From UHGV virus genome UHGV-0125821: a stretch of 64,000 nt of DNA; one strand, 5' to 3'. Below the pieces are notes generated by a model that worked only from the letters and a program-made list of their open reading frames with translations, did not search any database and was not told the DNA's origin. A program made the position numbers and the translations under genes. Numbering within the stretch: position 1 is the stretch's first letter; the number at the start of each line of letters is the position of its first letter. Positions 2,616-61,336 of this stretch are shown in pieces. The stretch comes from a virus.

Positions 2616-2628
2616 CCAAATAGATAAC

Positions 2629-2760
2629 ATGATGGAATTTTGGACGTTTGCCGACAAGAACCCTTGGTGGACATTTTTATTTCTGCTGGTGGTTGCATAT
2701 GGGGTCGAGCAAGCAGCAAAAGCCTTACGCGGTCCTGGCAAAAAGCGTAAGCGGAATTAA
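2629..2760 (+). CDS. 43-aa membrane peptide with basic C-terminus
   Basis: MMEFWTFADKNPWWTFLFLLVVAYGV...KKRKRN; below track size cut-off, no clear SD. Confidence 0.3.
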   Translation: MMEFWTFADKNPWWTFLFLLVVAYGVEQAAKALRGPGKKRKRN

Positions 2761-2769
2761 CAGTAATCT

Positions 2770-2845
2770 GGCCCTTTAGCTCAGTGGTTAGAGCAGGCGA
2801 CTCATAATCGCACGGTCACCGGTTCAAATCCGGTAGGGGCCACCA
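2770..2845 (+). tRNA. tRNA with CAT anticodon, ileX-like (Ile2 lysidine type) or Met
   Basis: acceptor GGCCCTT/AGGGGCC, anticodon loop CTCATAA, T-loop TTCAAAT, CCA; resembles enterobacterial ileX from memory. Confidence 0.8.
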
Positions 2846-3300
2846 TATTTGGTTGTAACACGGCGTCTGGCACATGCGTCGTTAGCGGTCTGGTGACGTT
2901 AAAAGGGGTATCTTTGACTCTTGCTTAGGCAAACGGACCAGGTAGCCGGAATGTGCAAGCCCCGGTAACAGTGGCGGACCGAGGACTCACCATCCTGGCG
3001 ATTCGGTGTGACAGCCGGAAGAGCACGGCGCACAACAGGAAAAGGCGTTTAATTAGCGTGAGCGCCGTTTCCGTTGTGGTAATTGCGGCTATGCGCTCGT
3101 GACGAAGCCATTTTCATTCACTACGTTCTGATAAGTGACGTCGCCAGGAGTGGCTAACCTGGCAGGTGGAGGCACCACCGCCACAACTCCTTTCAATTCA
3201 TCATATAGCCGCTCAGGCTGTACCCCTTAATTAATACGAAGTTACGACATCACTACCGGTACTTCCGGGGGATAGTCGCGCGTGTAAAAAAGGAGACGTT

Positions 3301-3876
3301 ATGTTAATGGCGAACGATAACGCATATGCAGAAGAAGATCTCATTTTGAGTGACTTCATAGGGAAGCGTGAACGCTGGACCCAAAAGCGAGAGGAACTTT
3401 ACGCCTCATTAGTTCGCAAAGGCGTCAATATCGAAACCGCACAGAGCGGCGATATGACAGTGGTAAGCGTTGGATTGCACGGTGTAAGCGTGTCAGCAAT
3501 CAATCATGAGCCATACGTTGCGTTATCCGAGTCAATGGTAAGGTTAGTTAAGTTCCTGAAGTACACAGAAGCGAATAATGTAATCATTGGCAAAAAGAAT
3601 ATCCCTTTTTCCTCGGCTTTTTACTGGATGATGAAAGGGCTTGATGCCCGGCGGACATCATGGCCTAAAGGGAGCTATATATCGATGTTCCGTGGCAGCA
3701 TTGGCAGCAAAGAAAAGCTCTTCGAATTCTTGCCGGAAGAGGCATTCGATATTGTGGAAGGGTGCGATGTGATGGTGATGCCTCGCCTGGTAATGATGAA
3801 TGGTGATTTACAGGCGCAGACAGACTGGTTTGCAACTGGTGTGGATATTATCGCGACTGACTGGGAGGCTTTCTGA
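3301..3876 (+). CDS. hypothetical protein with Trp-rich C-terminal domain (DUF2829-like)
   Basis: SD AAGGAG before ATG; C-terminus W..G..RR..W ... D(I/L)(I/L)A.DW shared with ORF 11524..12186. Confidence 0.65.
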   Translation: MLMANDNAYAEEDLILSDFIGKRERWTQKREELYASLVRKGVNIETAQSGDMTVVSVGLHGVSVSAINHEPYVALSESMVRLVKFLKYTEANNVIIGKKNIPFSSAFYWMMKGLDARRTSWPKGSYISMFRGSIGSKEKLFEFLPEEAFDIVEGCDVMVMPRLVMMNGDLQAQTDWFATGVDIIATDWEAF

Positions 3877-4268
3877 TGTACGGGACTACCAAATTAAGCA
3901 CTCAACAGGCCACCAATATGGAGTGGTCTATCGCTAACTGTAAGATCGTGTCATGCAATGCCACGCGTACTGATGTGGGCCATAAAAGCACTATAACAGG
4001 CTATCTAGTAATGACCACCAGGGGGATGAGGGTTAGCTTTCGCTGGAAAGCAGAGCAAGTAACGCCATTCAGAGAGCCATCAATGCCGCTGCAGGTTGAG
4101 CAGGATTATCTATGTTTACCAGAAATAGATGGCGGAATGCTGGTGGAGTCTGATGGTAGTAAGGCTGATTTTGAAGCCAATTTGAAGCTGGCACAGGCCG
4201 TAATCAATAGTTATCGCGGAAAGTGGATCGCAAAAGTGAAACATGTTGTTCGTTTGTCTCGCTGGTAG
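3876..4268 (+). CDS. hypothetical protein
   Basis: ATG overlaps upstream stop (TGATG); no family recognised. Confidence 0.55.
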   Translation: MYGTTKLSTQQATNMEWSIANCKIVSCNATRTDVGHKSTITGYLVMTTRGMRVSFRWKAEQVTPFREPSMPLQVEQDYLCLPEIDGGMLVESDGSKADFEANLKLAQAVINSYRGKWIAKVKHVVRLSRW

Positions 4269-4376
4269 CGTTAGGTATTTAATATTAATTTTCTAATACA
4301 ATCATCTTTTTACCAGTCTATACAGTTTTAACATTCTCATTATCATCCCCTCGGTCATTTCCTGCCCGGGGGATTA

Positions 4377-4769
4377 ATGGAACAAATCAGCAGCGCAGAA
4401 ATTGCGGATATCATGATCAGGGCTGACTGCTATCTGACAGTCACTGAAATTACCACTCTCGCCAAAGAAAAATACCCTCATCTCCATGTTTCACGAGTAA
4501 GTGTAACTAACATCATTCGTCATTTTGTTCGTTCAAGCAGGGCAATCTGTGAGCTTGATGATCGTGTTTACCCACGAAAATACTGGTTGCATGGCCTGAA
4601 CGGATATCAGTTCAAGGTGCGTGGGCGAACCCCTGAATATGGCAGTTTACTGGTTAAAAACTGTAGCAGGAAATCAGTCGAACAGGCGCGAAAAGAGCAA
4701 CGAGAGCTGGTGGACATGGCGAATAAGCTGTGGAATGCCGCCGTTATAAAGCGTGGTGTTGCTTTATGA
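4377..4769 (+). CDS. hypothetical protein, Lpa-like by position upstream of terminase
   Basis: position only; stop overlaps pacA-like start (ATGA). Confidence 0.5.
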   Translation: MEQISSAEIADIMIRADCYLTVTEITTLAKEKYPHLHVSRVSVTNIIRHFVRSSRAICELDDRVYPRKYWLHGLNGYQFKVRGRTPEYGSLLVKNCSRKSVEQARKEQRELVDMANKLWNAAVIKRGVAL

Positions 4770-6130
4770 GTCTGGTTAATTGGGAGGAGCACCGCGCCCG
4801 CTTTATAGCGTTGCGTGAAGAAAAAGGGATCACTGTAAAGGAATACTGTGAGGAGCATGGCCTTAGCTTCAATACAGCCAGAAAGCATCTCAATATGAAA
4901 AAAAATGAGGTGCGGTCGCAGGTAAAGACAACAAAAAAAAGCACCAAATCACCTGAAAAAAAACGGGCGGGAAGAGCAACAAAAAAGCTGGAAGAGGGTG
5001 TAGAAAAAACAAAATTTACAGAAATTGACAATTCGCAGGGCGCAGGTTCTTTCCGAAGTATGCCGAGAAAGAAAACTTCGGATCATGAAAATAATTCAAA
5101 TAATAACAATAAGATAAAAGAATCTGTCAGGAGATCATTGCGCGAAAAAATGGCGAAAATGATCCCCGAAGAAGATAAAAACGCCCCAAAAATTGAGGGA
5201 TCTTCTGCAATGATCCATGACGGTGCTGTGCAGCGAGCCACATTGCCAACTACGAATGTGGCTCGCGATATGATGAAGAACGGCGCAGAAGAACACCTGC
5301 GGTTAGCAATTCAAATGGCGCAAGAGCGCGCACTTCAGTATCAAAGCATTGTTGATCAGGAGGCCGAACGTCTACAGGCGGAAATAGACGCCTTGGGCGA
5401 TAAAGAGCCAGAAGGAATGCACCCTGGGCAGCGCCTTCTCGGTCTAATCAGTGACGCGGCCTACTACATGAATGATTTTATCAGTAGGTTGGCAGCTATA
5501 TATCAGTCCGAACAAAAGCTGCGACAGGGGGATGAAAAGCTTCGTCAGAGCGCTCGCCAGCAAGCATTCAAAGAGGCTGAGGCCAGAGAAAAACTCGAAT
5601 TAGCACGCCTACAGGCCGAACAGCGTGGCAAAGAGATTGAATATCGCATTGGCGCTGACGCACGCGCAGCCAGAGTTATCGCCGCCGCTATACGTATGCG
5701 TGAGCGCGAGGAACTGGATGATATCGGTGTTGCTGAATACATCGAGCGCCAGGGTGTCAGCGTCCCGGCTATCCTCGCGGCGCGCGCGGCGAAAGCTATC
5801 ACTCTTCTCGAACCACCTGTTTCTGACGTCAATGATGTTGATGATGAACAGCTGGACAAAGAGGCAAGGGAGTTTGCAACGCTTCAGGCTAACCATCCGC
5901 AATGGCTGGCAGAGCGCCGGGCGGATGTGGCAACCATTGTTGAAGAATTGGGGTGCGGAGATTACGACCGCAATGGCGAGCGTAAAGCTGGAGAATTCGA
6001 GGCCAACGACGAAGAGCTGGATATTGACCCTTCGGCAACGGCTGAAATTTACGGTGATTATGATGCATCTGATGCAGGGTATGACGCCGGAGATGATGAT
6101 ATCGCGATAGAACCGCCGGAGGATGATTAA
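4766..6130 (+). CDS. pacA: terminase small subunit (PacA-like)
   Basis: precedes and is translationally coupled to large terminase; N-terminal HTH-like region, acidic C-terminus; start moved to ATG 4766. Confidence 0.65.
   Translation: MSLVNWEEHRARFIALREEKGITVKEYCEEHGLSFNTARKHLNMKKNEVRSQVKTTKKSTKSPEKKRAGRATKKLEEGVEKTKFTEIDNSQGAGSFRSMPRKKTSDHENNSNNNNKIKESVRRSLREKMAKMIPEEDKNAPKIEGSSAMIHDGAVQRATLPTTNVARDMMKNGAEEHLRLAIQMAQERALQYQSIVDQEAERLQAEIDALGDKEPEGMHPGQRLLGLISDAAYYMNDFISRLAAIYQSEQKLRQGDEKLRQSARQQAFKEAEAREKLELARLQAEQRGKEIEYRIGADARAARVIAAAIRMREREELDDIGVAEYIERQGVSVPAILAARAAKAITLLEPPVSDVNDVDDEQLDKEAREFATLQANHPQWLAERRADVATIVEELGCGDYDRNGERKAGEFEANDEELDIDPSATAEIYGDYDASDAGYDAGDDDIAIEPPEDD
5080..5217. 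other. candidate pac site: five GATC-containing hexamers in 136 bp
   Basis: GATC at 5081, 5134, 5162, 5200, 5213 inside 5-prime part of pacA-like gene. Confidence 0.4.
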
Positions 6131-48092: not shown

Positions 48093-49751
48093 ATGAATAA
48101 GATTAGTTTTTCGGTAGGGCAGGCAGCTGGCGTTGCTGTAATGTCAGTAAATGCTGACGCTACCCTCACCAATACCAGCGGTGGCGCATCCGTCTTTGCT
48201 GGGCTTGTAATATCGCGTCGTGGCGCACCGGGTAAGGTACTGAAAGTTGACGATACGACTTATCAAAGCGTATTAGGTTCACCGATTCACCCTCGCCAGG
48301 GCGCGGCATTTGAACCATATCGCCACGTGGAGCGTGCAGTAAAAGGCGGCTCTGGATATGTCGTTCGAGTTTGCGCTAAAGACATGAAGGTGCCGGGTAT
48401 TTCTGTTTCCGTTGTGGGCAGAGCAAAAGCGGCAAAGGCGAGTAAAGAACTTTCCGTTGAACCAACTGAAACCACAGTAAATCCAGGTGTCACATTAAGC
48501 GTTGGTGTTGCTTCAACTGCAACGACTCAATCAGTGACCTTCACACCCAAAGAGACGCCCCAGATTAAAGGTGAAGAGAAGGCATTATTCTTCATCAAAG
48601 ATGGTGATGCATCTCAAAATCGCACGTTATCACTAACTCGCGATGATGAAGAAAGCGAACTCTTTACGCTGACGCTGAAAGAAAAACAAACCGATGGGTC
48701 CATTGAGGTGCTGGAAAGCCACCAAGTGTCTTTCAATCCAGAAGGCACCAACGACATGGGCCAACCAGCATGGATTCCGACACTGCTTGAAAGCCAGTCC
48801 ACTCGCATTGGTGCCGTACTGGCAGATAATGCAGAAGCATCCGCTGCTCAACTCATTTTTGAGGATGTAGCTTTTGAAGGTGGTACTGATGGAAATCTAT
48901 CCGAAATTAACGCTGCAGACTATCTGGAAGCATTAAAGGTTCTCGAAGCTTCAGAGGTTAATTACACCGCATTGCTGTCATTGGGTTGTTATGACGCATC
49001 CGCCTTAGCCGCAATCAAAAAGCTGGCTGAAGATGTTCGCGTAGACATGTTCTATGACCTGAAGGGCAACCAGACACCTGAAAACGCTATTTCAGAAGCG
49101 AAAAGCCATAGTTTTGGCGGCTCACATCAACCAAGCCGTTACTACTTCCCGCTCTCCTGCCGAGATACTTTCACTGGAATGAATGTCGTCTATGGCATTA
49201 GCTGCGACGCATTCGTAGCGAAGGCAAAAGGAGTGGCGCTGGTACCGGATGTTGGTGGTTGGCATTACGCACCGGCAGGTATATCACGCGCGATTATTGA
49301 TCGACAGAACATTGCCCGAATTCCAAATATCGGTGCAGTTGATCGTGAAGCGTTCGTTCTTGCGCGCATTAATCCAGTTTCAGTTGCTGCTGACGGGTCC
49401 GTTTACATTGACGACTCTTTAACAACTTACAGCAAAAACAACTATCTGCGATTCCAGCATGTGTCTTCCTTGATGAACGCCATCGCCAGAGATTTCTATG
49501 AAGTAGCTCAGGCGATTAAGCACGAACCGGATGGCATTACCAAAGAAACGCTAATGAAAGCAATGACTGAATTGCTTGACCGTTACGTTGCAGCCGGTGC
49601 GCTGGTTACTCCACGAGACAAGTCCCAGGGTGAAGATCCATATGTTGTTCAGGTTGTCCAAAAGGACATCGATCTGTGGGAAGTGTCCTGGTCTGTTTGT
49701 CCGACCGGCACAGCTCGCCGAATCGTCGGTAAGCCAATTCTGATGCGCTGA
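48093..49751 (+). CDS. tail sheath protein candidate
   Basis: 552 aa upstream of tube-like genes. Confidence 0.6.
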   Translation: MNKISFSVGQAAGVAVMSVNADATLTNTSGGASVFAGLVISRRGAPGKVLKVDDTTYQSVLGSPIHPRQGAAFEPYRHVERAVKGGSGYVVRVCAKDMKVPGISVSVVGRAKAAKASKELSVEPTETTVNPGVTLSVGVASTATTQSVTFTPKETPQIKGEEKALFFIKDGDASQNRTLSLTRDDEESELFTLTLKEKQTDGSIEVLESHQVSFNPEGTNDMGQPAWIPTLLESQSTRIGAVLADNAEASAAQLIFEDVAFEGGTDGNLSEINAADYLEALKVLEASEVNYTALLSLGCYDASALAAIKKLAEDVRVDMFYDLKGNQTPENAISEAKSHSFGGSHQPSRYYFPLSCRDTFTGMNVVYGISCDAFVAKAKGVALVPDVGGWHYAPAGISRAIIDRQNIARIPNIGAVDREAFVLARINPVSVAADGSVYIDDSLTTYSKNNYLRFQHVSSLMNAIARDFYEVAQAIKHEPDGITKETLMKAMTELLDRYVAAGALVTPRDKSQGEDPYVVQVVQKDIDLWEVSWSVCPTGTARRIVGKPILMR

Positions 49752-49794
49752 TTTATAACCCCCGCTAAATGATGCGGGGGAGAGAGGTTTGAAT

Positions 49795-50529
49795 ATGAAA
49801 AATTATACTGCTGATCCTTTTATGCGTGCGATTTTCGGTTCTGGCTGCTTTGAAAGCGGTGATAAATCCACGCAGGACAATAATGATAACGCCATGCTGG
49901 AAAGCGCAGGACAGAAAGGAAAGGACACTCAACCAAAGCCCAAAGGCGACATTGAAACCGCGATGATGGAAGCGGTTGAATCCCGTGCACAAGGTGATAT
50001 GCGCAGCCTGGCAGCTTCCATGCTTGCTGGTTGGGTTGAAGATGGTGATCCGGAGGCTGACTCATTTGATGCATTAGCAATCACTATGGCTGGCCTGGCT
50101 GATATCGATGAAGACACCGATTTCACCGATGAGCAAATCGATGCTTATAACGATGCTCTCGCAGCTCTTGCTGATGCAGCTGTTGCGCTTGGCGCTGATC
50201 AGGACGATGTAACCGAAATGATCGACGATGAAGATGACTCAGCTGCCGAACGTGTTTATGACGCTCTTTCCGAAAGCGACACCGACATGATGGAAACAGC
50301 TATTGCCATTTACACCGTTGCTGGTGGTGATAGCGCAATGCTGGAAGCGGTACGTAAAAAAGTGGTTCGTGATGGCAAGGTTACCATCATCCGTAAACGC
50401 CCGCGTCCTCGCCGCATGACGTCATTGCAAAAACAGGCGCTGAAAAAAGCACGCCGCAAAGCACATACATCCGTAGCGAATATCAACCGCAAAAAATCAA
50501 TGCGCATTCGCAAAAAACGCGGTTTGTAA
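49795..50529 (+). CDS. highly acidic protein with strongly basic C-terminal tail
   Basis: Asp/Glu-rich body, C-terminus RKRPRPRRMTSLQKQALKKARRK...; start set at ATG with SD GAGAGG. Confidence 0.6.
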   Translation: MKNYTADPFMRAIFGSGCFESGDKSTQDNNDNAMLESAGQKGKDTQPKPKGDIETAMMEAVESRAQGDMRSLAASMLAGWVEDGDPEADSFDALAITMAGLADIDEDTDFTDEQIDAYNDALAALADAAVALGADQDDVTEMIDDEDDSAAERVYDALSESDTDMMETAIAIYTVAGGDSAMLEAVRKKVVRDGKVTIIRKRPRPRRMTSLQKQALKKARRKAHTSVANINRKKSMRIRKKRGL

Positions 50530-50578
50530 GTGACATAGGTCGCCTGCAAAGGTGGCCTCTACCTGGGAGAAATAGCGT

Positions 50579-51169
50579 TTGATTTGCGGCGCGATAATGC
50601 CTGACGGAATAAGTCCGTTAATGAAGGTTTATATCCTCTCTTCAGAGGATATGGTCGTCGGTTATATCGGTGAAGGATCTACCGCAGAACTGTCATCAAT
50701 GTGGCAATCACCATTTGAAAACCAGTCAGTAGGAGGTTTGCTTGGCGGTATTAGCGCTGCGGCTGGCTCTCTTGCAGATACGCTTCAGACCGCAACCGGC
50801 GTAACAACAAAAACCCTCTTCAACTCAATGCTTGTTTGGGAAGGTCAGCAACCGCCTGAATTTAATCTGGTAATTGATTTCATGGCGACAACGAACGCGC
50901 AACTTGAAGTGAACGCAGCCATTACAGCATTGCTGAAGATGGAATCGCCGGAACTGAACAATGTAGCGCCATTCGGTCGTCGCCCGGAGACAGTAACGTT
51001 AAACATAGGTAGGAACATAGCCCTTACCGACGTTGTTATCAAAAGCGTGAGTTACCAACTGGACGCCCCGCGCACACCGGAAGGCTATTTCACTCATAAC
51101 ACGGTAACCCTGCAATGCAGCGGTAACACATCGATCAACCGTAGCAATATCTCATCTGTTTTTGTGTAG
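50579..51169 (+). CDS. hypothetical tail-associated protein
   Basis: 196-aa ORF between sheath and tube candidates; start uncertain. Confidence 0.55.
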   Translation: MICGAIMPDGISPLMKVYILSSEDMVVGYIGEGSTAELSSMWQSPFENQSVGGLLGGISAAAGSLADTLQTATGVTTKTLFNSMLVWEGQQPPEFNLVIDFMATTNAQLEVNAAITALLKMESPELNNVAPFGRRPETVTLNIGRNIALTDVVIKSVSYQLDAPRTPEGYFTHNTVTLQCSGNTSINRSNISSVFV

Positions 51170-51177
51170 GAGTATTT

Positions 51178-51669
51178 ATGTCCGGTTTTGCAAATACAAA
51201 AGCCGATATGGCCTTTCTAAAATCCCGGTTTAATAAAAACCTGGCTGCAGGCGAAAAACTTATTGGTTCTGAATATTGGATGACCATTAAGGGTTACGAA
51301 CATCTGTCTGTACTAGTTCGTACAGCTCAGTTACCAGAAATGACACGTGAAGATGTGGAGGATTACGCCCCTGGTGGCATGAAATTCAACCAGCACGGAC
51401 CATTACGCAACTCTGGTGAATTTCAGGTCACATGCGCGGAAACTATCGAAGGCGCAGTTCTCGCCGCTGTAAAACAGATGGTATACGGAAAAGAATATCT
51501 GGAAATTACCTTACAGGCGGCGGCTGAATCGAATAGCGGTAACCATAAAGGTCTGACCCGCACATATTCTCATTGCAAAGTGTATTCCGACGCCGTGGAC
51601 TTCTCATCCGAAGACGTAACGGCGGTCGTTAAACCTTCCCTGCGCATTGTTTACAACTGGGCGGAATAA
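51178..51669 (+). CDS. tail tube protein candidate
   Basis: 163 aa, size and position typical of contractile-tail tube. Confidence 0.55.
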   Translation: MSGFANTKADMAFLKSRFNKNLAAGEKLIGSEYWMTIKGYEHLSVLVRTAQLPEMTREDVEDYAPGGMKFNQHGPLRNSGEFQVTCAETIEGAVLAAVKQMVYGKEYLEITLQAAAESNSGNHKGLTRTYSHCKVYSDAVDFSSEDVTAVVKPSLRIVYNWAE

Positions 51670-51723
51670 TCCCTATCCCGCCCTTGTGGCGGGAACATCC
51701 TTGTTATTGAGTTGTAGGCAACA

Positions 51724-52275
51724 ATGACACCAATTGAATTATTAGAAAGCGTTAAAGAGCGATTTAATCCGCTGCTTGTGCGTGAAGAAGAAACGTTGAA
51801 AGCATTCCTGATCAAAGCTCTGACCACGTATCAGGACAGGGCAGGGGTAGTGAAAACGTTAAAACTTGAAAAAGCTGGTGGTACTGCAATCCCGTTGCCA
51901 GAAGATTATCTCTCTCTGGTTCATGTTACCGACAACAACGGCTTGTTGGTCTATTCGGATGAATTATCCGGATTTATTGAATTAGAGCTAACAGGTTCAG
52001 AACGCTGGCCTTTTCGAATGCTGTATCTGGTTAATCTACGCGACAGAGAGCTGGATGAATGGCAAGTGCCTCCTGCAATCATTGGAATGCTGGAGGAATA
52101 TCTGGAGGCGCTTATCAATGTAAGAAATGTCGCCCGGCAGCGTAGAGCGTCCATCGACGGGAAATTTGACTACTCCGATCTGCCCGATGAAGCCACGCTA
52201 TATGCCCGCGTGCAGGAGATTGAGGAAAAAATGTCCTCAAACCGGGCCATTATTCCGGGGGCTACCATTTTTTAA
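51724..52275 (+). CDS. hypothetical tail assembly protein
   Basis: 183-aa ORF. Confidence 0.55.
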   Translation: MTPIELLESVKERFNPLLVREEETLKAFLIKALTTYQDRAGVVKTLKLEKAGGTAIPLPEDYLSLVHVTDNNGLLVYSDELSGFIELELTGSERWPFRMLYLVNLRDRELDEWQVPPAIIGMLEEYLEALINVRNVARQRRASIDGKFDYSDLPDEATLYARVQEIEEKMSSNRAIIPGATIF

Positions 52276-52290
52276 CGCTGGAGGCGCAGA

Positions 52291-52998
52291 GTGAGTATTT
52301 TCAGCAGCGTTGGTAGAACGTTGACCACCGCATTGTCATTTAACACGAAATCATTCACCAGCAACCTCATTAGCGACATTCTTGATAAAGCCATATCAGG
52401 CGGCGGGGTAAGCGGGAATTACAGTAGCGATATTGCCTACGGGAAAAATATTGTTGCTGCCGCTATGCGTATCCGTTACGCCCAGGGGTGGCAGTGGACC
52501 GTTGAAGTGGATGGCCTGAACGGCTTCGATATGTTCGTGAAGGATATCACCTACAGCAGTGGAAACATTGAGACAGAAAGCAAGGTGATCGGCAGCGTAG
52601 AATTCAGCAAGCCAACCTATGTTAGCGCCGGACCGGTCACTATGACCGTGAGGGATACCGAAGATGGCAAGATCATGGACTGGTTCAAAGAGCGTCGTTC
52701 TCGTGTAACAAATCCTGATGGAACAATAAACCTTCCTCCTGAATATCTGATGAAAATCCGTGTCTACCGGGTGACTCAGGACGGCGGAAAAGAACTGGAA
52801 GAAGAAATGCGCGTATTTCCTACGCAACTTGGGGAAATCACACGCTCACGTGATCAGGTGTCAGAGTTCTTGTCATACCCAATCACTTTCCAGAAATACA
52901 CATCCGCAGGCTCAGGTGTTTCTGCTTTGGTCAACGGTGCCGCTGGCATGGCTACAAGTGCGTTAAAGGGGGCTGTGAGTGGAGTGATCAAATTCTGA
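52291..52998 (+). CDS. hypothetical tail-associated protein
   Basis: GTG start with SD GGAGG. Confidence 0.55.
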   Translation: MSIFSSVGRTLTTALSFNTKSFTSNLISDILDKAISGGGVSGNYSSDIAYGKNIVAAAMRIRYAQGWQWTVEVDGLNGFDMFVKDITYSSGNIETESKVIGSVEFSKPTYVSAGPVTMTVRDTEDGKIMDWFKERRSRVTNPDGTINLPPEYLMKIRVYRVTQDGGKELEEEMRVFPTQLGEITRSRDQVSEFLSYPITFQKYTSAGSGVSALVNGAAGMATSALKGAVSGVIKF

Positions 52999-53087: not shown

Positions 53088-53384
53088 TTGAGGGCATTTT
53101 TTACATCATCAATTCATCTGTAATGAAGGCATTCTTTACACATTTCAATAATATCAATCAGTTAACACAGTGAATGATAATAAAAAAGCGCAATAAGAAT
53201 GCACGATACGCACGATATTGGTTGAGGGCGATTTTTACATAGTCCTTACATATCAATACGTTATATAAAAACACAACTTGCTAATAACAAGATACATGCA
53301 ATTAAGATGTAAAAATTGCCCTCAATTGCCGATCGTTAAGGGCAAATTCTACACCTTGAGAGGGGTGTAAAAATTGCCCTTAAG
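53088..53384. repeat. iteron array downstream of repA (incA-like), five copies in both orientations
   Basis: TTGAGGGCATTTTTTACATC, TTGAGGGCGATTTTTACAT and relatives in AT-rich DNA; last copy overlaps repA stop. Confidence 0.6.
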
Positions 53385-54135
53385 ACTGCTGATAGGTAAA
53401 TTTTATCCTGGTAACTTTGCCGCCTTCCGTCACCTCTGAGAAGACTATTTTCATTTTTGTATTTTTTTCAATCTCTGCTACAGCCTTCGTTAAAAAACTT
53501 CTCTTAAATTCGGCATACCGCTGATAGCTTTTTGGTAACCCATAACGCTCCCGCATCCATTCGACGCCAAGTATGGCAAAGCCGCTTCCATCATCCTTCC
53601 TGTACTGGCATAAGGACTCATAAAGCCGCATAGAATAAGGATTTGTAAGGCGAGATACTTCGGTAAAATTCAGCCTTGTGAATCTCTTATCAAGCAGAGT
53701 AAAAAACGGCATGAGATATGGATTAAGATGAATAATGTAAGTCCCGCGACGTGGTGAATAGGCATCCTTAATCATCCAGGGATAAGACTCATAACTGTCT
53801 TCTGATTCGGTCGATTCATCAGGGTTATATATCGTAACTTTCTTCTCGCTAAGACCTGAAATGGCCTTACGAATATCCTTGCTGGCTTCAGCAGAGGGCA
53901 AATTATACATCTCTGCATATTCGTTGACCGTCAACTCACAGGCACCTGAACCAAGAACGCCATCCTTAGAAGCATAGCGAAGTCTTCCCACCACAATAAA
54001 CAACAGTCGCTTTTGGTCGCGAGTCAGGTGATAAGCAGCCTCCGTGATCTCATTGGCTTGTGCCAAACTACGACTAATAGGTGTCGCTGACTCAATCAGG
54101 CTGACGGCTTTTGCTGTTAATTCCGCTCTGTTCAT
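53380..54135 (-). CDS. repA: iteron-binding replication initiator RepA (Rep_3-like)
   Basis: TNPYSMRLYESLCQYR signature-like block; flanked by iterons; start set at internal ATG. Confidence 0.75.
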   Translation of the reverse strand: MNRAELTAKAVSLIESATPISRSLAQANEITEAAYHLTRDQKRLLFIVVGRLRYASKDGVLGSGACELTVNEYAEMYNLPSAEASKDIRKAISGLSEKKVTIYNPDESTESEDSYESYPWMIKDAYSPRRGTYIIHLNPYLMPFFTLLDKRFTRLNFTEVSRLTNPYSMRLYESLCQYRKDDGSGFAILGVEWMRERYGLPKSYQRYAEFKRSFLTKAVAEIEKNTKMKIVFSEVTEGGKVTRIKFTYQQS

Positions 54136-54159
54136 AACCCTGTGTGATCCTTCAAATGG

Positions 54160-54277
54160 TGAGGGCAATTTTTACATCACTTTGAGGGCAATTACTACAC
54201 CTTTTGAGGGCAAATCTTACACCTTCTGAGGGCAAATCTTACACCGACCGTATTTAATTGAGGGCAAATCTTACACC
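54160..54277. repeat. iteron array upstream of repA (incC/oriR-like), five direct copies
   Basis: TTGAGGGCAAATCTTACACC at 22-bp spacing; sixth inverted copy near 54400. Confidence 0.7.
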
Positions 54278-54523: not shown

Positions 54524-55345
54524 TTGAACATTCCAAAATTCCCATTGCCTTCCCGTCCTGAGACAGAAATTCAGTTCCACGCCCCTACCGTGAAGGATGC
54601 GCTGAAATATTCTGACCTGAACCCGGCAGAAGATGAGGCAACTACTACAGAGTACCTTAACTCTATGCAGGATGGTGAAATTAACGACAGTGCTAACTGG
54701 ACAGTTCAGGATCGCAGAACTGCTCTTTGGTGGATATTTGTTAATTCGCGCCCCGATGCAGTAATGACCTACTCCTATGAGTGCAGTCACTGCGGTAATA
54801 CGCATCATGCAGATATTAACCTGAGCGACCTGGCCCAAACAGTAGAAATACTCACTGTACCTCCTTACGTGAAAACCAACGTACCAGTAAATGGAGTACC
54901 AACTGACTGGATACTTAAACCATTAACCGGGAAAGGCGCGGAACTCCTTGAACGAATGCGAGCGTCACTTCCTGATATGAAAAGCCCCGAATACAGTGCT
55001 GGCGTGGCACGGATGCGAATTGCTGAACTCGCTTTATGCACGGCGCTTGAAGACGATCCGGAGGACTTCACGCAGGCCGCTAACCGACGCTTTGACATCA
55101 TTGAAAGCATGGCGCTTGAAACCGAATTTACCCCGCTTGTGGCTCGCATACAGCTTATGCAAAAAGACCTACGCCACGGCCTGAAAATGTCTATTGAGAG
55201 AGGCTCAAGCCGACTGATCCTGCCTCCGCAACATTGCAAAAACGCTAAGGAGGGTGCAGATGTGACAACCACACTGTACGTCCCCTTTCTCAATAGAGAG
55301 TTTATCCCATCAATTAGATCTGAATGGATGGCTAACCATTATTAA
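54524..55345 (+). CDS. hypothetical protein upstream of tape measure
   Basis: 273-aa ORF, TTG start in track. Confidence 0.55.
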   Translation: MNIPKFPLPSRPETEIQFHAPTVKDALKYSDLNPAEDEATTTEYLNSMQDGEINDSANWTVQDRRTALWWIFVNSRPDAVMTYSYECSHCGNTHHADINLSDLAQTVEILTVPPYVKTNVPVNGVPTDWILKPLTGKGAELLERMRASLPDMKSPEYSAGVARMRIAELALCTALEDDPEDFTQAANRRFDIIESMALETEFTPLVARIQLMQKDLRHGLKMSIERGSSRLILPPQHCKNAKEGADVTTTLYVPFLNREFIPSIRSEWMANHY

Positions 55346-55359
55346 CAACCTGACTCTGT

Positions 55360-58300
55360 ATGGATATCAGCCCGTTAGTGACGTTGAACAATTGCCACAA
55401 TGGCGAGCACTCCATATGTCAAAAGCCCTGGAAGAAAAATACAAAGCTCAAGCCGGGAAACGTTGTCGCCGCTGGTAAAAGAGAGGTTATTTTGAAAGAG
55501 AATAAAGACCGTATCGCAATAATTGACGCTATTCAGGGGGCGAGCACAAACGAACTTAAGGCTCTTGCTGAGATCAAAGATGCCATTCTTTCTGGGGCAA
55601 GCACCATAACTCAACAGGCCGAAAGGCAAGGCAGAGTTAGCAACAGACTATCACGCAGGCGTAAAGAGTACGAGCAAAGTACATCTGATAGCGTTAGAGA
55701 TGTCCAAACTAACCCATATAAAAAACGTCTCCCTGCTAAAAAGGAAAGGGCACCGTTAAACCAAACCGTGGACCGCTCTATCGTTGCAACGAACACACCA
55801 GAAAGTGTTCGCTCCGTGCAATCACGTCAGACCATCCGAAAATCGGACGGTTTTATACCGGTAGCTGCTAATTCAGCCCCTCTTGAACCACAATCCCCCC
55901 AAAGTCTAAAAGGCCCGCTGCGGGATAGTAATGGACGTTTTGTATCCCAAAAAAGCAATGAGGATGTAGCCAGAAAAAAAGAATTGCAGAACGCACGTAA
56001 AGCCGACGCAAAATTACAAGCTGGCTTTCTCAGAAAGCTAGGTTCCATTATGGGGGTAGATGGCAATCGGTCTTCCAGTGAAGAGTCTTTAACAAATGCA
56101 GCTGGTGTCGGTGCTGGTGGGCCGTTCTGGATGGCGGCTCGTGGCATGTACGACATAACTAAAGAGATCACAGGTAAAGCAGAATCTCTTAAAGAATGGG
56201 TAGAAAAGGGGAAAAAAGAAACATCAACCTCGAAAGCAATATCACCAGTAATTACTTATCCGGCGGCGGTGAATTCTCAAAAAGCAACATCTGCAAAAGC
56301 GTTCAATAACGCTGTTGAGACAAAATCCGCACAAGCAGTAGAAGAGCAAACCAAAATCCTTCAGACCAATGACAACAAAATAATTGATGGTCTGGAAAAT
56401 GTTTCTGACGAGATAGTTAAGCTTCGGAAATCAGTGTCTTCTGGAAATAAGTTCGGCTTAAGTGATCTCTGGAAAAATCGAGCAAGCAGAAGAAATAAAA
56501 TCAATATTGGTGATCAGACGGGAAAAAATAAACGGAACAAATCGAAAAGGAAAGGACGCAATCTTGGGAAAAAAGCACTCTCCGCTGGCGAAAAAGTTGC
56601 TGCCGGTAGCGCTGCGGCTGGCACTGGTGTCGGAGCAGCAAAAGTAGTTAAAAATAAGATCAGCAAACCCAAAGATGTAAGCACTATCAGCGATACATCA
56701 AAGGGGATTGCAAAGGAAACAAAAAATACTGCTAAGGCCGTGAAGTCAGCTGGTGTTGTGGCTGAAGATGCCACCATTAAAACCGGCGAAGCCATTGCAA
56801 AGAAAAAAACTGAATCTGTAGCCCTCAAAAGTGCTGCAAAAATAGGTGTTAAATCAGCAGCATCCACAGCGGCAAGAGCGGTCCCTATCATCGGTTCGCT
56901 GGCAATGGCTGGATATGACGCCATAGATGGTTACACAGATACAGAGGCGCAAAAGGCAGCCTTTGGCTTAAGTGATGATAATGCTGTATCCACACAGCAA
57001 AAAACCGCTTATGCAGCAGCTAATGTGCTTGATATGGGCGGCTTAGTGTCGGGTGCAACCAACCTAATAGGCAAAGGGATTTCTGCGTTAGGCTTTGAAG
57101 GGGCAGGTGAAAAACTTCAGAATTTTAACACTGGAGATATTGCTCGTGACATAAATAGTTCTATAGACACGACAAAAACCGTATTCAGCAGCCTAAAAGA
57201 ATCGTTCTCATCAAGCAGCGAAGGCACTGCGCAGGTTAAGAAAGCCGTTGAAGATGGCACCAAGCAAACGGTAACCGCAATTAATAACCTGGGCCGACAG
57301 CTACAAGGCGGGCGTGATGGTGAAGATGGTGTTGGTGAGCACGGGTATACTTCCCCGGCTGAATTTAATGCGCCTACCAGTAACACCATTGCTGCGGATC
57401 TGAATATTGGTGGCAGCAACGCTAAAAACCGCAATTATCGGAATAATAATCTCGGGAACCTTGTTTTCGCCAATCAGGAAGGGGCGACGCTGGAAGCACC
57501 GAATGCAAAAGGTGAACAGCGTTTTGCTCGATTCAACACGCCTGAAGAAGGGATCAGGGCGTTGGCAAACCAAGTGTCAAGCTATTACAACGGCACCAGT
57601 GCCGCAGCAGGACATCAGAAGTTACAGACGGTATCAAGCATCATTTCCAAATGGGCGCCGCCAAATGAGAACAATACCAATCAATATATTGATAACGTCA
57701 GTAAATATCTTGGCGTCTCGCCTAATGAAAAAATAGACGTCAGCAACCCAGAGGTTATGACGCAATTAGTTCGTGCAATAGCGACGAAAGAAGGTGGAAA
57801 CCCGGCGGTTAACAATGAGTTCATAAAGAATGCTCTTGGGGCATTCAACGCAAATACTGGTCGTTGGGAAGGGCGGTTCTCCGATGAAACATTGGCGCGG
57901 CTTAATAAAATTCAGCAAGAGAATGGCGGTCAACTAATTGCTCGTGATTCGCAATATAGCGTTGGTCGCAAGGTGAAATATGCTGATGGTACATCTCCAG
58001 CACAACCTGTATTGAATGCAGTTCCAACAGCAACACCTAAGCCAATTGAAGTTGCACAACATGCCCAGGCCGCCAAAAAGCCACAAAAAAAAGGTAACCA
58101 ACCACAACCGATTAATCCAGAGAACGCTGATGTTAATACCGGCTCTCCATCGAGTTTGCTTGAGCGGTTAATCGCAATAAATGAAAGCGGAATCAGTGGT
58201 GCAAGTAATTTATTTGGCGGCGCGGCTACCAGCCTTGCTGGAACAAGTCTGGACCTGGTAAAGGATTTTGCGTCGGCTACTTCGTTTGGTTCTATATCTT

Positions 58301-59529
58301 CGCTTTCCGAAAAAGCGAAAGGAATGGATCAGGCTCTTACTGAAAAGATATCCGGCTTAACCGGTAAATCTTTTGGATTTAAAAAAGCTTCTCAAGTGGC
58401 TGATATCGCAACAGCCATACAACAAAAACGCACTGTTAATCACGATACAGAAATCATTGATCTACTTCCGGGAGATCAAGTATCCCCTTCTACTCCGAAA
58501 ACTCCACAGCAGGAGCAGGCTCTAGCAATCAGCCAGGCTATGGCGGGCTTTTCGTCTGCAGCGCCAGCACCGAAAACCCCACAGCAGGAGCAGGCTCTAG
58601 CAATCAGCCAGGCTATGGCGGGCTTTTCATCTGCAGCGCCAGCACCGAAAACCCCACAGCAGGAGCAGGCTCTAGCAATCAGTCAGGCTATGGCGGGCTT
58701 TTCGTCTGCAGCGCCAGCACCGAAAACCCCACAGCAGGAGCAGGCTCTAGCAATCAACCAGGCTATGGCGGGCTTTTCGTCTGCAGCACCAGCACCGAAA
58801 ACCCCACAGCAGGAGCAGGCTCTAGCAATCAACCAGGCTATGTCGGGAGCTGCGCCAGTAGTTACCTCTGGAAAACGAACTATCACGGCACCAAGTGATG
58901 TGCAGATTTATGACAACGGCTACAAGGTGGTTACAGGTGAGGATAAGAGCTTCTTTGGTTCGCTATTTGATTCCACGGTGTCAGGGCTTAAACAGGCAGG
59001 AACCGCAGTAATTCCTGCCGTTGGCGATAACCTTTCACGACTTGTTGGGGGGATTGATAGTACAGGGATATTGAACGATCTTGTAATGCAGTCTACTGGG
59101 CAGAATAGTGCGATTGCGCGAGCTATTAGCCCATTAACAAGAAATGTTGGAGACTGGCTGAATGGGGGGATTCAACAAACCGCTAATAGCATTAGGGGAA
59201 TAGCAACTGGTGCCAATAACGCCATATTTGGCTCTGCTTCAGCTGTGCAAGAACCTTTTCTTGCTATGCCGCCACAACTCCCTACTGTAACCGATCTCGC
59301 ACGAAGCGGAATAAGACAACCATTAACTACTGACACTATAAATAACGATCCTGCTATGTTGAAGGCGCTGGATAACATCTGCTCTATCCTGAACGATCTG
59401 CTGAATGTGAACAAGAACAATACAAAAGGCGATCCGGATAATGTTGTCAAAACATCGCAGCCGCAGCCGCGACCACGTGCGAGCACAACTATTAATGACC
59501 AGTCGCTGGATGCTCTGCTTGAGGATTAA
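55360..59529 (+). CDS. tail tape measure protein candidate
   Basis: 1389 aa, Ala/Gly/Lys-rich, upstream of baseplate genes; contains 25-aa tandem repeats. Confidence 0.7.
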   Translation: MDISPLVTLNNCHNGEHSICQKPWKKNTKLKPGNVVAAGKREVILKENKDRIAIIDAIQGASTNELKALAEIKDAILSGASTITQQAERQGRVSNRLSRRRKEYEQSTSDSVRDVQTNPYKKRLPAKKERAPLNQTVDRSIVATNTPESVRSVQSRQTIRKSDGFIPVAANSAPLEPQSPQSLKGPLRDSNGRFVSQKSNEDVARKKELQNARKADAKLQAGFLRKLGSIMGVDGNRSSSEESLTNAAGVGAGGPFWMAARGMYDITKEITGKAESLKEWVEKGKKETSTSKAISPVITYPAAVNSQKATSAKAFNNAVETKSAQAVEEQTKILQTNDNKIIDGLENVSDEIVKLRKSVSSGNKFGLSDLWKNRASRRNKINIGDQTGKNKRNKSKRKGRNLGKKALSAGEKVAAGSAAAGTGVGAAKVVKNKISKPKDVSTISDTSKGIAKETKNTAKAVKSAGVVAEDATIKTGEAIAKKKTESVALKSAAKIGVKSAASTAARAVPIIGSLAMAGYDAIDGYTDTEAQKAAFGLSDDNAVSTQQKTAYAAANVLDMGGLVSGATNLIGKGISALGFEGAGEKLQNFNTGDIARDINSSIDTTKTVFSSLKESFSSSSEGTAQVKKAVEDGTKQTVTAINNLGRQLQGGRDGEDGVGEHGYTSPAEFNAPTSNTIAADLNIGGSNAKNRNYRNNNLGNLVFANQEGATLEAPNAKGEQRFARFNTPEEGIRALANQVSSYYNGTSAAAGHQKLQTVSSIISKWAPPNENNTNQYIDNVSKYLGVSPNEKIDVSNPEVMTQLVRAIATKEGGNPAVNNEFIKNALGAFNANTGRWEGRFSDETLARLNKIQQENGGQLIARDSQYSVGRKVKYADGTSPAQPVLNAVPTATPKPIEVAQHAQAAKKPQKKGNQPQPINPENADVNTGSPSSLLERLIAINESGISGASNLFGGAATSLAGTSLDLVKDFASATSFGSISSLSEKAKGMDQALTEKISGLTGKSFGFKKASQVADIATAIQQKRTVNHDTEIIDLLPGDQVSPSTPKTPQQEQALAISQAMAGFSSAAPAPKTPQQEQALAISQAMAGFSSAAPAPKTPQQEQALAISQAMAGFSSAAPAPKTPQQEQALAINQAMAGFSSAAPAPKTPQQEQALAINQAMSGAAPVVTSGKRTITAPSDVQIYDNGYKVVTGEDKSFFGSLFDSTVSGLKQAGTAVIPAVGDNLSRLVGGIDSTGILNDLVMQSTGQNSAIARAISPLTRNVGDWLNGGIQQTANSIRGIATGANNAIFGSASAVQEPFLAMPPQLPTVTDLARSGIRQPLTTDTINNDPAMLKALDNICSILNDLLNVNKNNTKGDPDNVVKTSQPQPRPRASTTINDQSLDALLED
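58495..58869 (+). repeat. in-frame 75-bp tandem repeat, about 4.6 copies
   Basis: unit encodes PKTPQQEQALAISQAMAGFSSAAPA; copies differ by 1-3 substitutions. Confidence 0.85.
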
Positions 59530-59534
59530 TACTG

Positions 59535-59909
59535 ATGCTTTACGAAATAGACGCAAGACTTCAAACGAATGAGAGCGGTGTCATTATTGCAGAAGGAAGT
59601 ACCGCAGCATGGATGGCCCGACTTGACGAGTGGCTACGAACCCCTGAAGGGAGTGTTTATGGTTTACCCTCTTGGGGGAGTCCAATGGAAGAATTTAAGC
59701 ATGAACCATTCGGCTCTGAAACTTCGCACATAGTTGAAGTGGCTATTGAAGGGAGAATGATGAAAAAACTACGACAAGACTTGCCAGGTTTGGATGTGCA
59801 GGGGATTCGTTGCACATCAATTTCTGAAGATTCTTTATTAATTAGTTTTTATGCGAAAGGTGGGAGCATGGATATTGTTATGCAGAAATCAAGTGGGGTG
59901 GGCGCGTGA
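59535..59909 (+). CDS. baseplate wedge protein (gpW/gp25-like)
   Basis: 124 aa, position before gpJ-like gene. Confidence 0.55.
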   Translation: MLYEIDARLQTNESGVIIAEGSTAAWMARLDEWLRTPEGSVYGLPSWGSPMEEFKHEPFGSETSHIVEVAIEGRMMKKLRQDLPGLDVQGIRCTSISEDSLLISFYAKGGSMDIVMQKSSGVGA

Positions 59910-61336
59910 CGATTACAGAATTACTGGACAAATTTAACGCCAAGTTAAATGAAAACACATGGTGGTCACGATTTGTAAATAGTCAGTTTGTGCAGATGCA
60001 CGCTATATTCGGATCGCAGCTTATTTATATTGCCCGTACATTTGCAAGCCGCGGCCTCACTGAGGGACTTATTTCAACGGCAACGCGTCGCTCAAGTATT
60101 TTAGCGGTTGCTGAAGACCGTAGCTACGTAGGGCGATTTGTTAGTGCTTCATACGGAACAACGTCTATAACCAATAAAACTGATCGGGATATTACGTTAC
60201 CAGCCGGGGCTGAATTGCTTGCCAATGACCAAACACCTTTGGCAATTATTAACAGTGTTGTAATTCCTGCTGGAGGAACTGTTTCTGGCGTAGAAACTAA
60301 ACAGCATGAAGCTGTTAGCATTACATTTGATATTGAGAAGGAAACTTTATTTCTGACATTGTTGCTTTCCAGAGAGTTAACAAAAGAAGTCTCTAGCCTG
60401 GATGTTTATGTTATTACAGATGGAGTAGAAGAAAAATGGACATATAACCCATTATTTAGAATGTCCAGAGACAAGAGTAAGCACTATTCATTGGCATATA
60501 AACCTACAGAACAACTTGGAGTCAAGTTTGGTGATGGTTCTATGGGTATGATGCCTCCAGCAGGCTGTCAGGTTCGAATCGATGTTATGGCTAGCCTTGG
60601 CGACTATACTTTGGCTGAAGGACAAAAGTTAGAACCGGCTGGAAATATCGCTCAATATGTGGAGTCACTAGAGTTTAAAACTGATTCGATCATTACCGGT
60701 GGTAGTGGTATGGAAACTACAGAAGAAACTCGAAATCGTGCTCAGTATTATGTTGCATACGATGAACAAGTGGTATGGGGCGGTGATTATCGCCAATTCA
60801 TTCAGAATGTTGTTCATGGAACTTCATGGTTGAACGTTTGGGGCGAAGCGTTACAAGAGAAAATAACTGGGTTTGACGTTCGAAACATCAACAAAATTTT
60901 CTTTTGCGGACATAAGCCGGGTGTAAGCCAGGCTCAGCTAAAATCAGAAATACTGAAAGCTCTAGAGAATGTTCCAAATGAGTTGAACAAGCGGTTCGAG
61001 TATGTAGATACAAATGAACAGCCATTTACTATAAATTTTATAGGTATTGCACGTAAAAATGTTCTGATAGACGATGCTCAAAATGCTATTAAAGCAGCAT
61101 TGGAAGATAATTTTGGCCGTGATTCGTCATCATTCAGTTTATTACTACAGAGTGATGATGATTCCCAACAATGTTATGCACAGGTAAAAGTTAAAGATAT
61201 TTGGCGAGTAATAGAGTCTCTGGATATGTTTCTGTCTTACGACATAACAATACAAAATATGAAAGATGCTGTTTACTTTAATGACTTCATTTATCTTAAC
61301 GTAAAATCTTCAACGTTCAGCATTTCTTACCCGTAA
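59906..61336 (+). CDS. baseplate protein (gpJ-like)
   Basis: 476 aa, position and size. Confidence 0.6.
   Translation: MTITELLDKFNAKLNENTWWSRFVNSQFVQMHAIFGSQLIYIARTFASRGLTEGLISTATRRSSILAVAEDRSYVGRFVSASYGTTSITNKTDRDITLPAGAELLANDQTPLAIINSVVIPAGGTVSGVETKQHEAVSITFDIEKETLFLTLLLSRELTKEVSSLDVYVITDGVEEKWTYNPLFRMSRDKSKHYSLAYKPTEQLGVKFGDGSMGMMPPAGCQVRIDVMASLGDYTLAEGQKLEPAGNIAQYVESLEFKTDSIITGGSGMETTEETRNRAQYYVAYDEQVVWGGDYRQFIQNVVHGTSWLNVWGEALQEKITGFDVRNINKIFFCGHKPGVSQAQLKSEILKALENVPNELNKRFEYVDTNEQPFTINFIGIARKNVLIDDAQNAIKAALEDNFGRDSSSFSLLLQSDDDSQQCYAQVKVKDIWRVIESLDMFLSYDITIQNMKDAVYFNDFIYLNVKSSTFSISYP

Follow-up and report, generated by a model that had tools for sequence, protein, structure and literature searches.

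A copy-number-variable 75-bp coding minisatellite in the sit gene of D6-like phage-plasmids and its plausible bearing on tail length

Can the tail of a contractile-tailed phage be lengthened or shortened in fixed steps by repeats that are gained and lost in a single gene? The question is raised by a tandem array in the virus genome UHGV-0125821, of which we analyzed one stretch of 64,000 nucleotides (the window). The array lies inside a homologue of sit (55360–59529, plus strand), which encodes a presumed tail tape measure and injection transglycosylase of 1389 amino acids (aa). We find that this array is a 75-bp minisatellite whose copy number is highly variable among related phage-plasmids. 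We lean towards the view that the in-frame minisatellite, situated in the C-terminal third of a D6-type Sit protein, is part of a ruler and counts towards tail length.

Tandem Repeats Finder reported a single array of period 75 at 58495–58847 (4.7 copies, 97% matches, 0% indels, score 657). The 64-kb window holds three tandem arrays, of which that in sit is the strongest by far; since the other two are short (29 and 86 nt), the sit array is not a chance feature. From this output, the sequence and pairwise comparison, four full 75-bp units of 25 aa each were placed on the plus strand at 58495–58569, 58570–58644, 58645–58719 and 58720–58794, followed by a terminal unit at 58795–58869, in which the first 53 nt (58795–58847) are in register and the remainder diverges. 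Any two of the window units differ at 1–3 of 75 positions. The array is in frame within the open reading frame (ORF), and the four full units, residues 1046–1145, each encode PKTPQQEQALAI(S/N)QAMAGFSSAAPA. The terminal unit is translated as PKTPQQEQALAINQAMSGAAPV, and the stretch after the four full units reads PKTPQQEQALAINQAMSGAAPVVTSG. Beyond its first 53 nt this unit is degenerate to about position 58869, with 'AAPV' replacing 'AAPA' and without the FSS codons, and it ends in AAPVVTSG. Relatives with zero copies (CP117014 and a class of 1286-aa proteins) keep the terminal unit alone, which is probably the founder sequence of the array.

The near-identical head-to-tail units, the unit length that is a multiple of three and the preserved frame of all observed arrays are those of a coding minisatellite, or variable number tandem repeat. 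Because the unit comprises 25 codons, all copy-number variants stay in frame. A first-pass annotation of this DNA had described about 4.6 copies of a 75-bp unit that differ by only 1–3 substitutions; the unit, the copy number and the substitution count were all correct, and the end that it gave for the array, 58869, is the end of the degenerate continuation of the terminal unit. A 67-aa ORF with a GTG start also overlaps the array on the minus strand (58683–58886); rather than being a gene, it most likely arises as a by-product of the repeat.

We then compared the array among relatives. The query consisted of the flanks only, 1000 nt on each side with the array removed, and was searched against all complete E. 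coli genomes. All 80 matching records were plasmids, and about 57 of the 80 carried the repeat-bearing allele. In the census of these 57 plasmids, the number of full units ranged from 0 to 16: zero and one unit were found in three plasmids each, two in two, three in seven, four in eleven, five in nine, six in five, seven in six, eight in five, nine in two, 10 and 13 in one each, and 16 in two. Array length was exactly 53 + 75n nt in 53 of the 57. The other four were 9 nt off, an offset that corresponds to the FSS codons of the terminal unit, and were tabulated at the nearest whole number (3, 4, 6, and 8, the last being the one at 8.88).

The same picture emerged at the protein level, where the comparison took in the best 120 protein clusters. 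The repeat allele was present in 72 of these, with 1 to 7 units including the terminal one, between the invariant flanks '...LLPGDQVSPST' and 'G(AA)PVVTSGKR...', and the Sit lengths formed ladders with 25-residue steps. At least 22 protein pairs were 100% identical outside the array, over about 1270 or more residues, and differed by 1–3 units, while several copy numbers occurred inside 9 of 19 clusters at ≤1% divergence. Across the variants Sit ranges in length from 1289 aa to about 1690 aa (+31%).

Arrays that were read directly contained 0 full units (CP117014), 1 (CP035876), 4 (the window and CP047013), 5 (CP076307 and CP056796), 9 (CP042632), 13 (CP195333) and 16 (CP116989, with a Sit of 1676 aa). 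The CP056796 array is that of the window with the third unit (the 'AGT' variant) duplicated, within flanks that are about 99.8% identical. CP047013, with flanks 99.9% identical to those of the window, has an equal number of units with the S/N variants ordered differently. This duplication and reordering are the expected products of unequal exchange between units. Among 21 distinct 75-nt units from 21 loci there were 11 variable sites, 5 synonymous and 6 non-synonymous, which suggests that purifying selection on the units is at most weak. A scan of IMG/VR with the left array junction found 4 loci only, two of which end at the array. The 13-unit sit of NZ_CP195333.1 (52854–61874) sits in a 120-kb linear 'plasmid' record, where it is without its 5' part and follows directly after portal and head-processing genes; this record is probably a rearranged, defective element or a misassembly.

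A closer view of the timescale comes from strain Ec-050, for which there are five complete assemblies with a D6-like plasmid (NZ_CP086513.1, NZ_CP086503.1, NZ_CP086473.1, NZ_CP086483.1 and NZ_CP086493.1). The serial-subculture series is described in a passage of PMC11039899 that cites Moser 2022, and the literature passages on the series call it genetically stable. The labels T0, T5 and T20 are most likely passage numbers. The T0 plasmid (90446 bp, sit of 4581 nt) has 10 full units, T5-MAC (90296 bp, sit of 4431 nt) has 8, and T5-ESBL, T20-ESBL and T20-MAC (each 89996 bp, sit of 4131 nt) have 4. Around the array there are 0 mismatches in 3855 nt upstream and 4703 nt downstream (about 8.5 kb), and the plasmids differ in length by exactly 150 and 300 bp, multiples of 75 that equal the array differences. 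The passage from T0 to T20 is a clean six-unit deletion between two identical units, and the unit order of T5-MAC needs two events from T0. Real-time contraction, heterogeneity already present in the starting culture, or collapse in hybrid assembly may each account for these differences. Copy number appears, from the assembled sequences, to change within 5–20 laboratory passages. Together with the 0–16 units among 57 plasmids and the otherwise identical protein pairs, the Ec-050 arrays of 10, 8 and 4 units strongly support the earlier suggestion of recent expansion or ongoing copy-number variation; repeat number compared across relatives is highly polymorphic, not invariant.

Which gene carries the array? 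Residues 45–1389 of its product match phrog_7182, 'tail injection transglycosylase' (E = 0, 2340 bits, profile positions 1–1228 of 1228), and the gene has 92% nucleotide identity to D6_40 of Escherichia phage D6, annotated 'similar to P1 gene sit'. No other ORF in the window exceeds 600 aa. A Pfam scan of Sit and nine neighbors gave no family for Sit at E ≤ 0.01, so PHROGs were needed to identify it. The D6 protein gp40 (putative tail injection transglycosylase, 1260 aa) shares 91% aa identity over residues 1–1057 and 74% over the C-terminal 243, and has the same neighbors, but carries a different, repeat-free allele between '...KASQV.DI' and 'YDNGYKV'.

From the N- to the C-terminus, Sit comprises a long N-terminal part, a lytic (transglycosylase/endolysin-like) domain at residues ~682–860 (57403–57939, plus strand), a Pro/Gln-rich stretch 'HAQAAKKPQKKGNQPQP', Gly/Ala/Ser-rich hydrophobic segments, the array at 1046–1170, and a C-terminal module of ~220 residues (~1171–1389; 58870–59526, plus strand) that is conserved among Sit-like proteins. 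The lytic domain matches phrog_873, annotated endolysin (residues 687–827, 5.7e-39), phrog_2276, 'tail length tape measure protein' (682–854, 3.2e-26), and PDB 7q47_A, 'Endolysin' (688–817, 2.5e-16). The C-terminal module begins past the array at '...DVQIYDNGYKV' and finishes in a PQP...INDxSLDALLED tail, an extreme C-terminal motif that is similar in the Sit of phage P7 and in a Sit-like protein (P0133) described below. Upstream of the array there is further variation: two alternative Sit N-termini occur, MDISPL... and MASTPYVKS..., with some entries beginning 44 residues later at MKENKD (window compared with P0001–P0120), and residues ~283–540 fall into two haplotypes, one with an 11-aa indel (window 55360–57000 compared with P0001–P0120). 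Thus, sit is recombinationally mosaic upstream of the array too.

The P1 Sit protein (1140 aa) was found in virions with LC-MS/MS (PMC9024508), and its assignment as tape measure is based on its size, helical N-terminal two-thirds, gene position and presence in the virion (PMC9024508, PMC12810830). The 2026 cryo-electron microscopy (cryo-EM) study of P1 counted 52 tube rings and 53 sheath rings and named Sit as the tape measure; Sit itself was not resolved, low-resolution density in the hub and tail lumen was gone after contraction, and Sit was reported to be ejected (PMC12810830). An earlier P1 candidate, gp6, has since been assigned to the baseplate as its hub (PMC9024508). Neither paper (PMC9024508, PMC12810830) describes a length-variant test of the assignment.

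The window protein occupies the same slot of the tail operon as P1 Sit, between pmgB and pmgA/bplA, and belongs to a similar size class (1260–1690 aa for D6-type Sit against 1130–1140 aa in P1/P7). Each has a cell-wall lytic domain in its interior, and at the extreme C-terminus their PQP...S(I)(N/D)D motifs are similar. Alignment to P1/P7 Sit was confined to residues 487–630 (44%) and a weak N-terminal block at 188–349 (24%), and P1/P7 Sit has neither the 25-aa repeat nor a related motif. The lytic domain of P7 Sit (2367–5759) has ATESGG, taken here as the canonical SLT-family signature. The window domain does not align to it and, unlike that of P7, resembles PDB 7q47 'Endolysin' and the transglycosylases of T7-like phages. 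In tblastn searches, coverage of the window protein's first 900 aa was 13%, and its last 509 aa had D6 as their sole match among 50,697 phage records, which makes D6 the only characterized phage able to inform the C-terminal region. We therefore rejected orthology to P1 Sit in the strict sense, as only residues 188–349 and 487–630 can be aligned; judged from these alignments, the window protein is a positional and partial (mosaic) homologue of P1 Sit. When the array was first placed inside the tape measure gene, the gene was rightly located, being a D6-type sit; its tape-measure status was put too firmly, since that of P1 Sit was assigned without a report of length mutants and was not resolved by cryo-EM, and the window protein is like P1/P7 Sit in parts only.

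The array occupies a variable part of the protein. A search with residues 1000–1389 against 1.84 billion representative proteins returned 26 matches, about a dozen of which are Sit-like proteins of 1260–1450 aa that share the C-terminal module. In these relatives the segment from '...GK.FGF.KA...' to 'PVYDNGY' is 30–45 residues long, Pro/Ser/Ala-rich, unconserved and repeat-free. Since this segment is short in the relatives and repeat-free there and in D6, the array has grown in a linker that tolerates changes of sequence and length.

Other Sit lineages carry repeats of their own. The Sit of a Nissabacter sp. SGAir0207 plasmid (P0133, 1095 aa, phrog_7182 at 1e-151) has six 25-residue units 'TPLQEQIQAVYDAEHGKASAPAAPA' at residues ~775–925, with the same period as the window unit and 13 of 25 residues identical. 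The P0133 array follows directly after the lytic domain and a 'HAQAAKKP' motif, whereas that of the window lies ~140 residues further on. Three proteins from contigs of ~20–97 kb have units of 40/41 residues with the core 'TLQQNIQAVADAQG': three units in P0150 (1066–1188) and P0151 (1057–1190), and two in P0147 (1073–1130). Like the window Sit, all four proteins match phrog_7182 and have their repeats after the lytic domain, and all share with it the core T-[PL]-x-Q-[EQ]-x-[IQ]-[QA]-A-[VIL]-x-x-A-x-x-G (more loosely, T-x-Q-x-x-I-Q-A-x-x-x-A-x-x-G across Sit lineages), followed by a Pro/Ala-rich spacer. Their units are more diverged (70–82% identity), and near-identical copies are found in the window lineage only; copy-number variation elsewhere is only hinted at by the two units of P0147 against the three of P0150. 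Most of the weak matches to the repeat region (P0128, P0136, P0138, P0139, P0142 and P0144) were not accepted as homologues, being low-complexity proteins that are periodic but unrelated. On this comparison, a short core predicted to form a helix, with a Pro/Ala spacer, is a repeated module that recurs in several Sit lineages.

We propose that unequal homologous recombination or replication slippage between the ~97%-identical units would add or remove whole 25-residue modules. Such changes seem to arise during replication in the plasmid state, with the late genes silent and, presumably, no selection acting on sit. Each module probably forms a short helix (QQEQALAISQAMAG) and a Pro/Ala-rich spacer; the linker that holds the modules separates the lytic domain from the conserved C-terminal module and appears to tolerate any length. 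In contractile tails the rise per ring is ~38–41 Å, and T4 and lambda use ~25–27 aa per ring. If Sit is a linear ruler in the manner of lambda gpH and T4 gp29, each unit would contribute 25 × 1.5 Å, or ~37 Å, which is roughly one ring of tube and sheath. In a tail of roughly 200 nm, the four units of the window would then account for about four rings (~15 nm) more than in a zero-unit relative, and the known range of 0–16 units would span ~60 nm.

By analogy, a gain in tail length of about 25 residues' worth per unit is plausible. In-frame changes of lambda gpH and T4 gp29 scale tail length linearly, according to the relevant passage of a 2026 survey (PMC13585406, citing Katsura & Hendrix 1984 and Abuladze 1994), and repeats contribute to length variation among tape measures (PMC13585406; Belcaid 2011, PMC3271669). 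The P1 numbers (1140 aa, 52 tube rings) correspond to ~21–22 residues per ring, close to the T4 and lambda values; this ratio leaves no spare Sit residues, and therefore the C-terminal third would also count towards length, contrary to the narrower published argument from the N-terminal part (PMC9024508). We think it very likely that Sit is the ruler and, with less assurance, likely that the array segment counts towards tail length; it is the combination of these two judgments that makes the full reading one towards which we lean and no more.

Several points weigh against it. We found no published tail-length measurement for any Sit length variant of P1 or of D6-like phages, and the transfer of function from P1 is partial because few blocks align and the lytic domains do not. 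For P1 Sit, the ruler case made in print draws on the N-terminal ~750 helical residues alone and takes the tail to be 120 nm long (PMC9024508), whereas the array lies past the lytic domain; the assumed tail seems too short for 52 tube rings at the rise given above. An AlphaFold2 prediction of residues 901–1389 from a 15-sequence alignment had a mean predicted local distance difference test score of 33, and the helix-spacer structure is not supported by this model. The 40/41-aa units of related Sit lineages argue against a strict equation of one unit with one ring, and we did not adopt as a rule that 25 aa make exactly one tail ring. The spread of 0–16 units, with no obvious constraint on a protein that grows by 31%, suits equally well an explanation in which the array serves as a spacer, hypervariable and functionally neutral: Sit may be a tape measure, with slack in its C-terminal linker, and copy number would drift without a change in tail length. 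The linker could be looped or compact, or could matter only after ejection, for example by spacing the lytic domain from a membrane-proximal C-terminal module in the periplasm. We regard this as a real possibility, though not a likely one. It would account for an equivalent segment that is short, unconserved and repeat-free in other Sit-like proteins and not present in D6, for the occurrence of every copy number from 0 to 10, plus 13 and 16, among complete plasmids, for changes that appear during plasmid propagation when tail function is presumably unselected, and for the weak constraint indicated by the 5:6 ratio of synonymous to non-synonymous variants on 11 sites. It fits less well with the linear scaling of the tape measures that have been tested and with the P1 ratio, which needs all 1140 residues, and three diverged Sit lineages have retained related repeat modules whose core is conserved, which suggests that the module is more than junk. 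The envelope that a P1-type tail crosses is far thinner than the tail is long, and therefore a length change of 10–25% may be nearly neutral for infection; many copy numbers could for this reason persist even if tail length changes. By our own reasoning, such near-neutrality does not discriminate between the explanations.

We think it unlikely that Sit is no ruler at all but a protein that is ejected, degrades the cell wall and forms a channel, comparable to the transglycosylases inside T7-like virions, with another factor setting tail length; the repeats would then modulate ejection or the lytic role, or do nothing. Among the phage relatives of the lytic domain in tblastn there are indeed endolysins and T7-like genes annotated 'DNA ejectosome component' and 'peptidoglycan transglycosylase', and Sit is missing from the resolved P1 cryo-EM map (PMC12810830), but the tape-measure-annotated phrog_2276 has the same lytic domain. 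Mutants of P1 gene 6 historically gave variable tail lengths, and gp6 has also been annotated as tape measure (PMC9024508); at 338 aa, however, it is too short, besides being the baseplate hub. By contrast, sit is the sole very long ORF of the tail operon and lies in the usual position of a tape measure gene, and P1 Sit is both present in the virion and reportedly ejected (PMC9024508, PMC12810830). It is highly improbable that the copy-number differences are assembly artefacts, the true array being stable and its 0.1–1.3 kb of near-identical units collapsed or mis-resolved. Many protein-database entries do come from short-read draft or Logan assemblies, which are able to collapse such arrays. 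Both independent Ec-050 lines end at the same 4-unit array, so that three of the five assemblies carry the shortest possible path through the repeat graph, and the unit order of T5-MAC takes two events. Yet complete-plasmid records from unrelated studies give 0–16 units, nearly all of exactly 53 + 75n nt, the assembled arrays of 10, 13 and 16 units differ in the order of their units, and the window has the same count as the 99.9%-identical CP047013. Related isolates also agree in unit number (WCHEC4533, 96200 and 000837 all have 7; AR_0118, AR_0119 and AR_0128 all have 5; MLI108K1 and MLI108K2 both have 16), which disfavors random assembly noise. A more ambitious idea, which we find speculative and rather unlikely, is that the sit minisatellite is a built-in diversity generator, the recurrence of the module reflecting selection for a tunable tape-measure unit and not neutral slippage. 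If so, mutation during plasmid-state replication would lead any lysogen population to shed virions whose tail lengths, or whose spacings between lytic domain and membrane, form a ladder.

The surroundings of sit agree with its assignment. The upstream tail genes, identified by PHROG matches and the D6 annotation, are the sheath gene (48093–49751), gp21, pmgG, bplB (tail tube), pmgC and tub (48093–52998, plus strand). Directly upstream of sit is a homologue of pmgB (54524–55345, plus strand; phrog_1854, 5e-135; D6_41), suggested to be the tape-measure chaperone in P1 (PMC9024508). Homologues of pmgA (gp25-like baseplate wedge) and bplA (baseplate J/gp6-like) follow directly downstream (59535–61336, plus strand; roles from PMC9024508, PMC12810830). 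The full order is sheath, gp21, pmgG, bplB, pmgC, tub, repB on the opposite strand, pmgB, sit, pmgA, bplA, gp16 and R. The longest tail ORF, sit, thus comes after the sheath, tube and chaperone genes and before those of the baseplate, as is usual for a tape measure gene. Because the neighbors of sit are those of the P1/D6 tail module, the window is part of a D6-like phage-plasmid.

Within the tail operon, a minus-strand gene for a plasmid replication initiator of the RepB/RepA family (53380–54168) separates tub from pmgB. A 22-bp direct repeat (54160–54245, 3.9 copies, TGAGGGCAAATCTTACACCTT) precedes this gene, the repeat copies probably being the iterons of the replicon. The arrangement is shared by D6 and the related plasmids. 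At the left end of the window there is a cluster of four tRNA genes (667–2845): Asn-GTT, Thr-TGT, an 87-nt Ser-TGA and Met-CAT.

The polymorphism provides ready-made, near-isogenic length variants, including the Ec-050 series, with 0 to 16 units (1289 to ~1690 residues), the extremes being represented by MLI121 (0) and MLI108K1 (16). Ring counts in such variants could test the ruler role of Sit directly, and could also show whether the segment C-terminal to the lytic domain counts towards tail length. The array is in addition a typing marker for D6-like phage-plasmids, with 75-bp steps, and is likely to cause mis-assembly and to give rise to spurious 'different protein' clusters in databases.

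We found no paper describing the sit array, and a study of Salmonella D6-like plasmids notes only divergence 'in the sit sequence' (PMC6799933). Both the ruler principle and tape measures whose internal repeats vary are already established. The tape measures of Belcaid 2011 (PMC3271669), like sit, contain in-frame repeats that differ in number between related phages, but their unit is 11 aa; that of sit is 25 aa and of different sequence. Tape measures of myoviruses are typically without tandem repeats, according to the 2026 survey (PMC13585406). The sit array differs from the known variable-repeat tape measures in that its copies are nearly identical in DNA and that its number apparently changes on the timescale of laboratory passage. 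It differs also in its host, a contractile-tailed phage-plasmid, and in its site C-terminal to a lytic domain, and it is known from sequence, with an effect on tail length suggested by analogy. What is new is the 25-aa unit, its site C-terminal to the lytic domain in the Sit of a myophage phage-plasmid, the 0–16 polymorphism and the apparent change during passage, which add a further candidate to the repeat-bearing tape measures described before.

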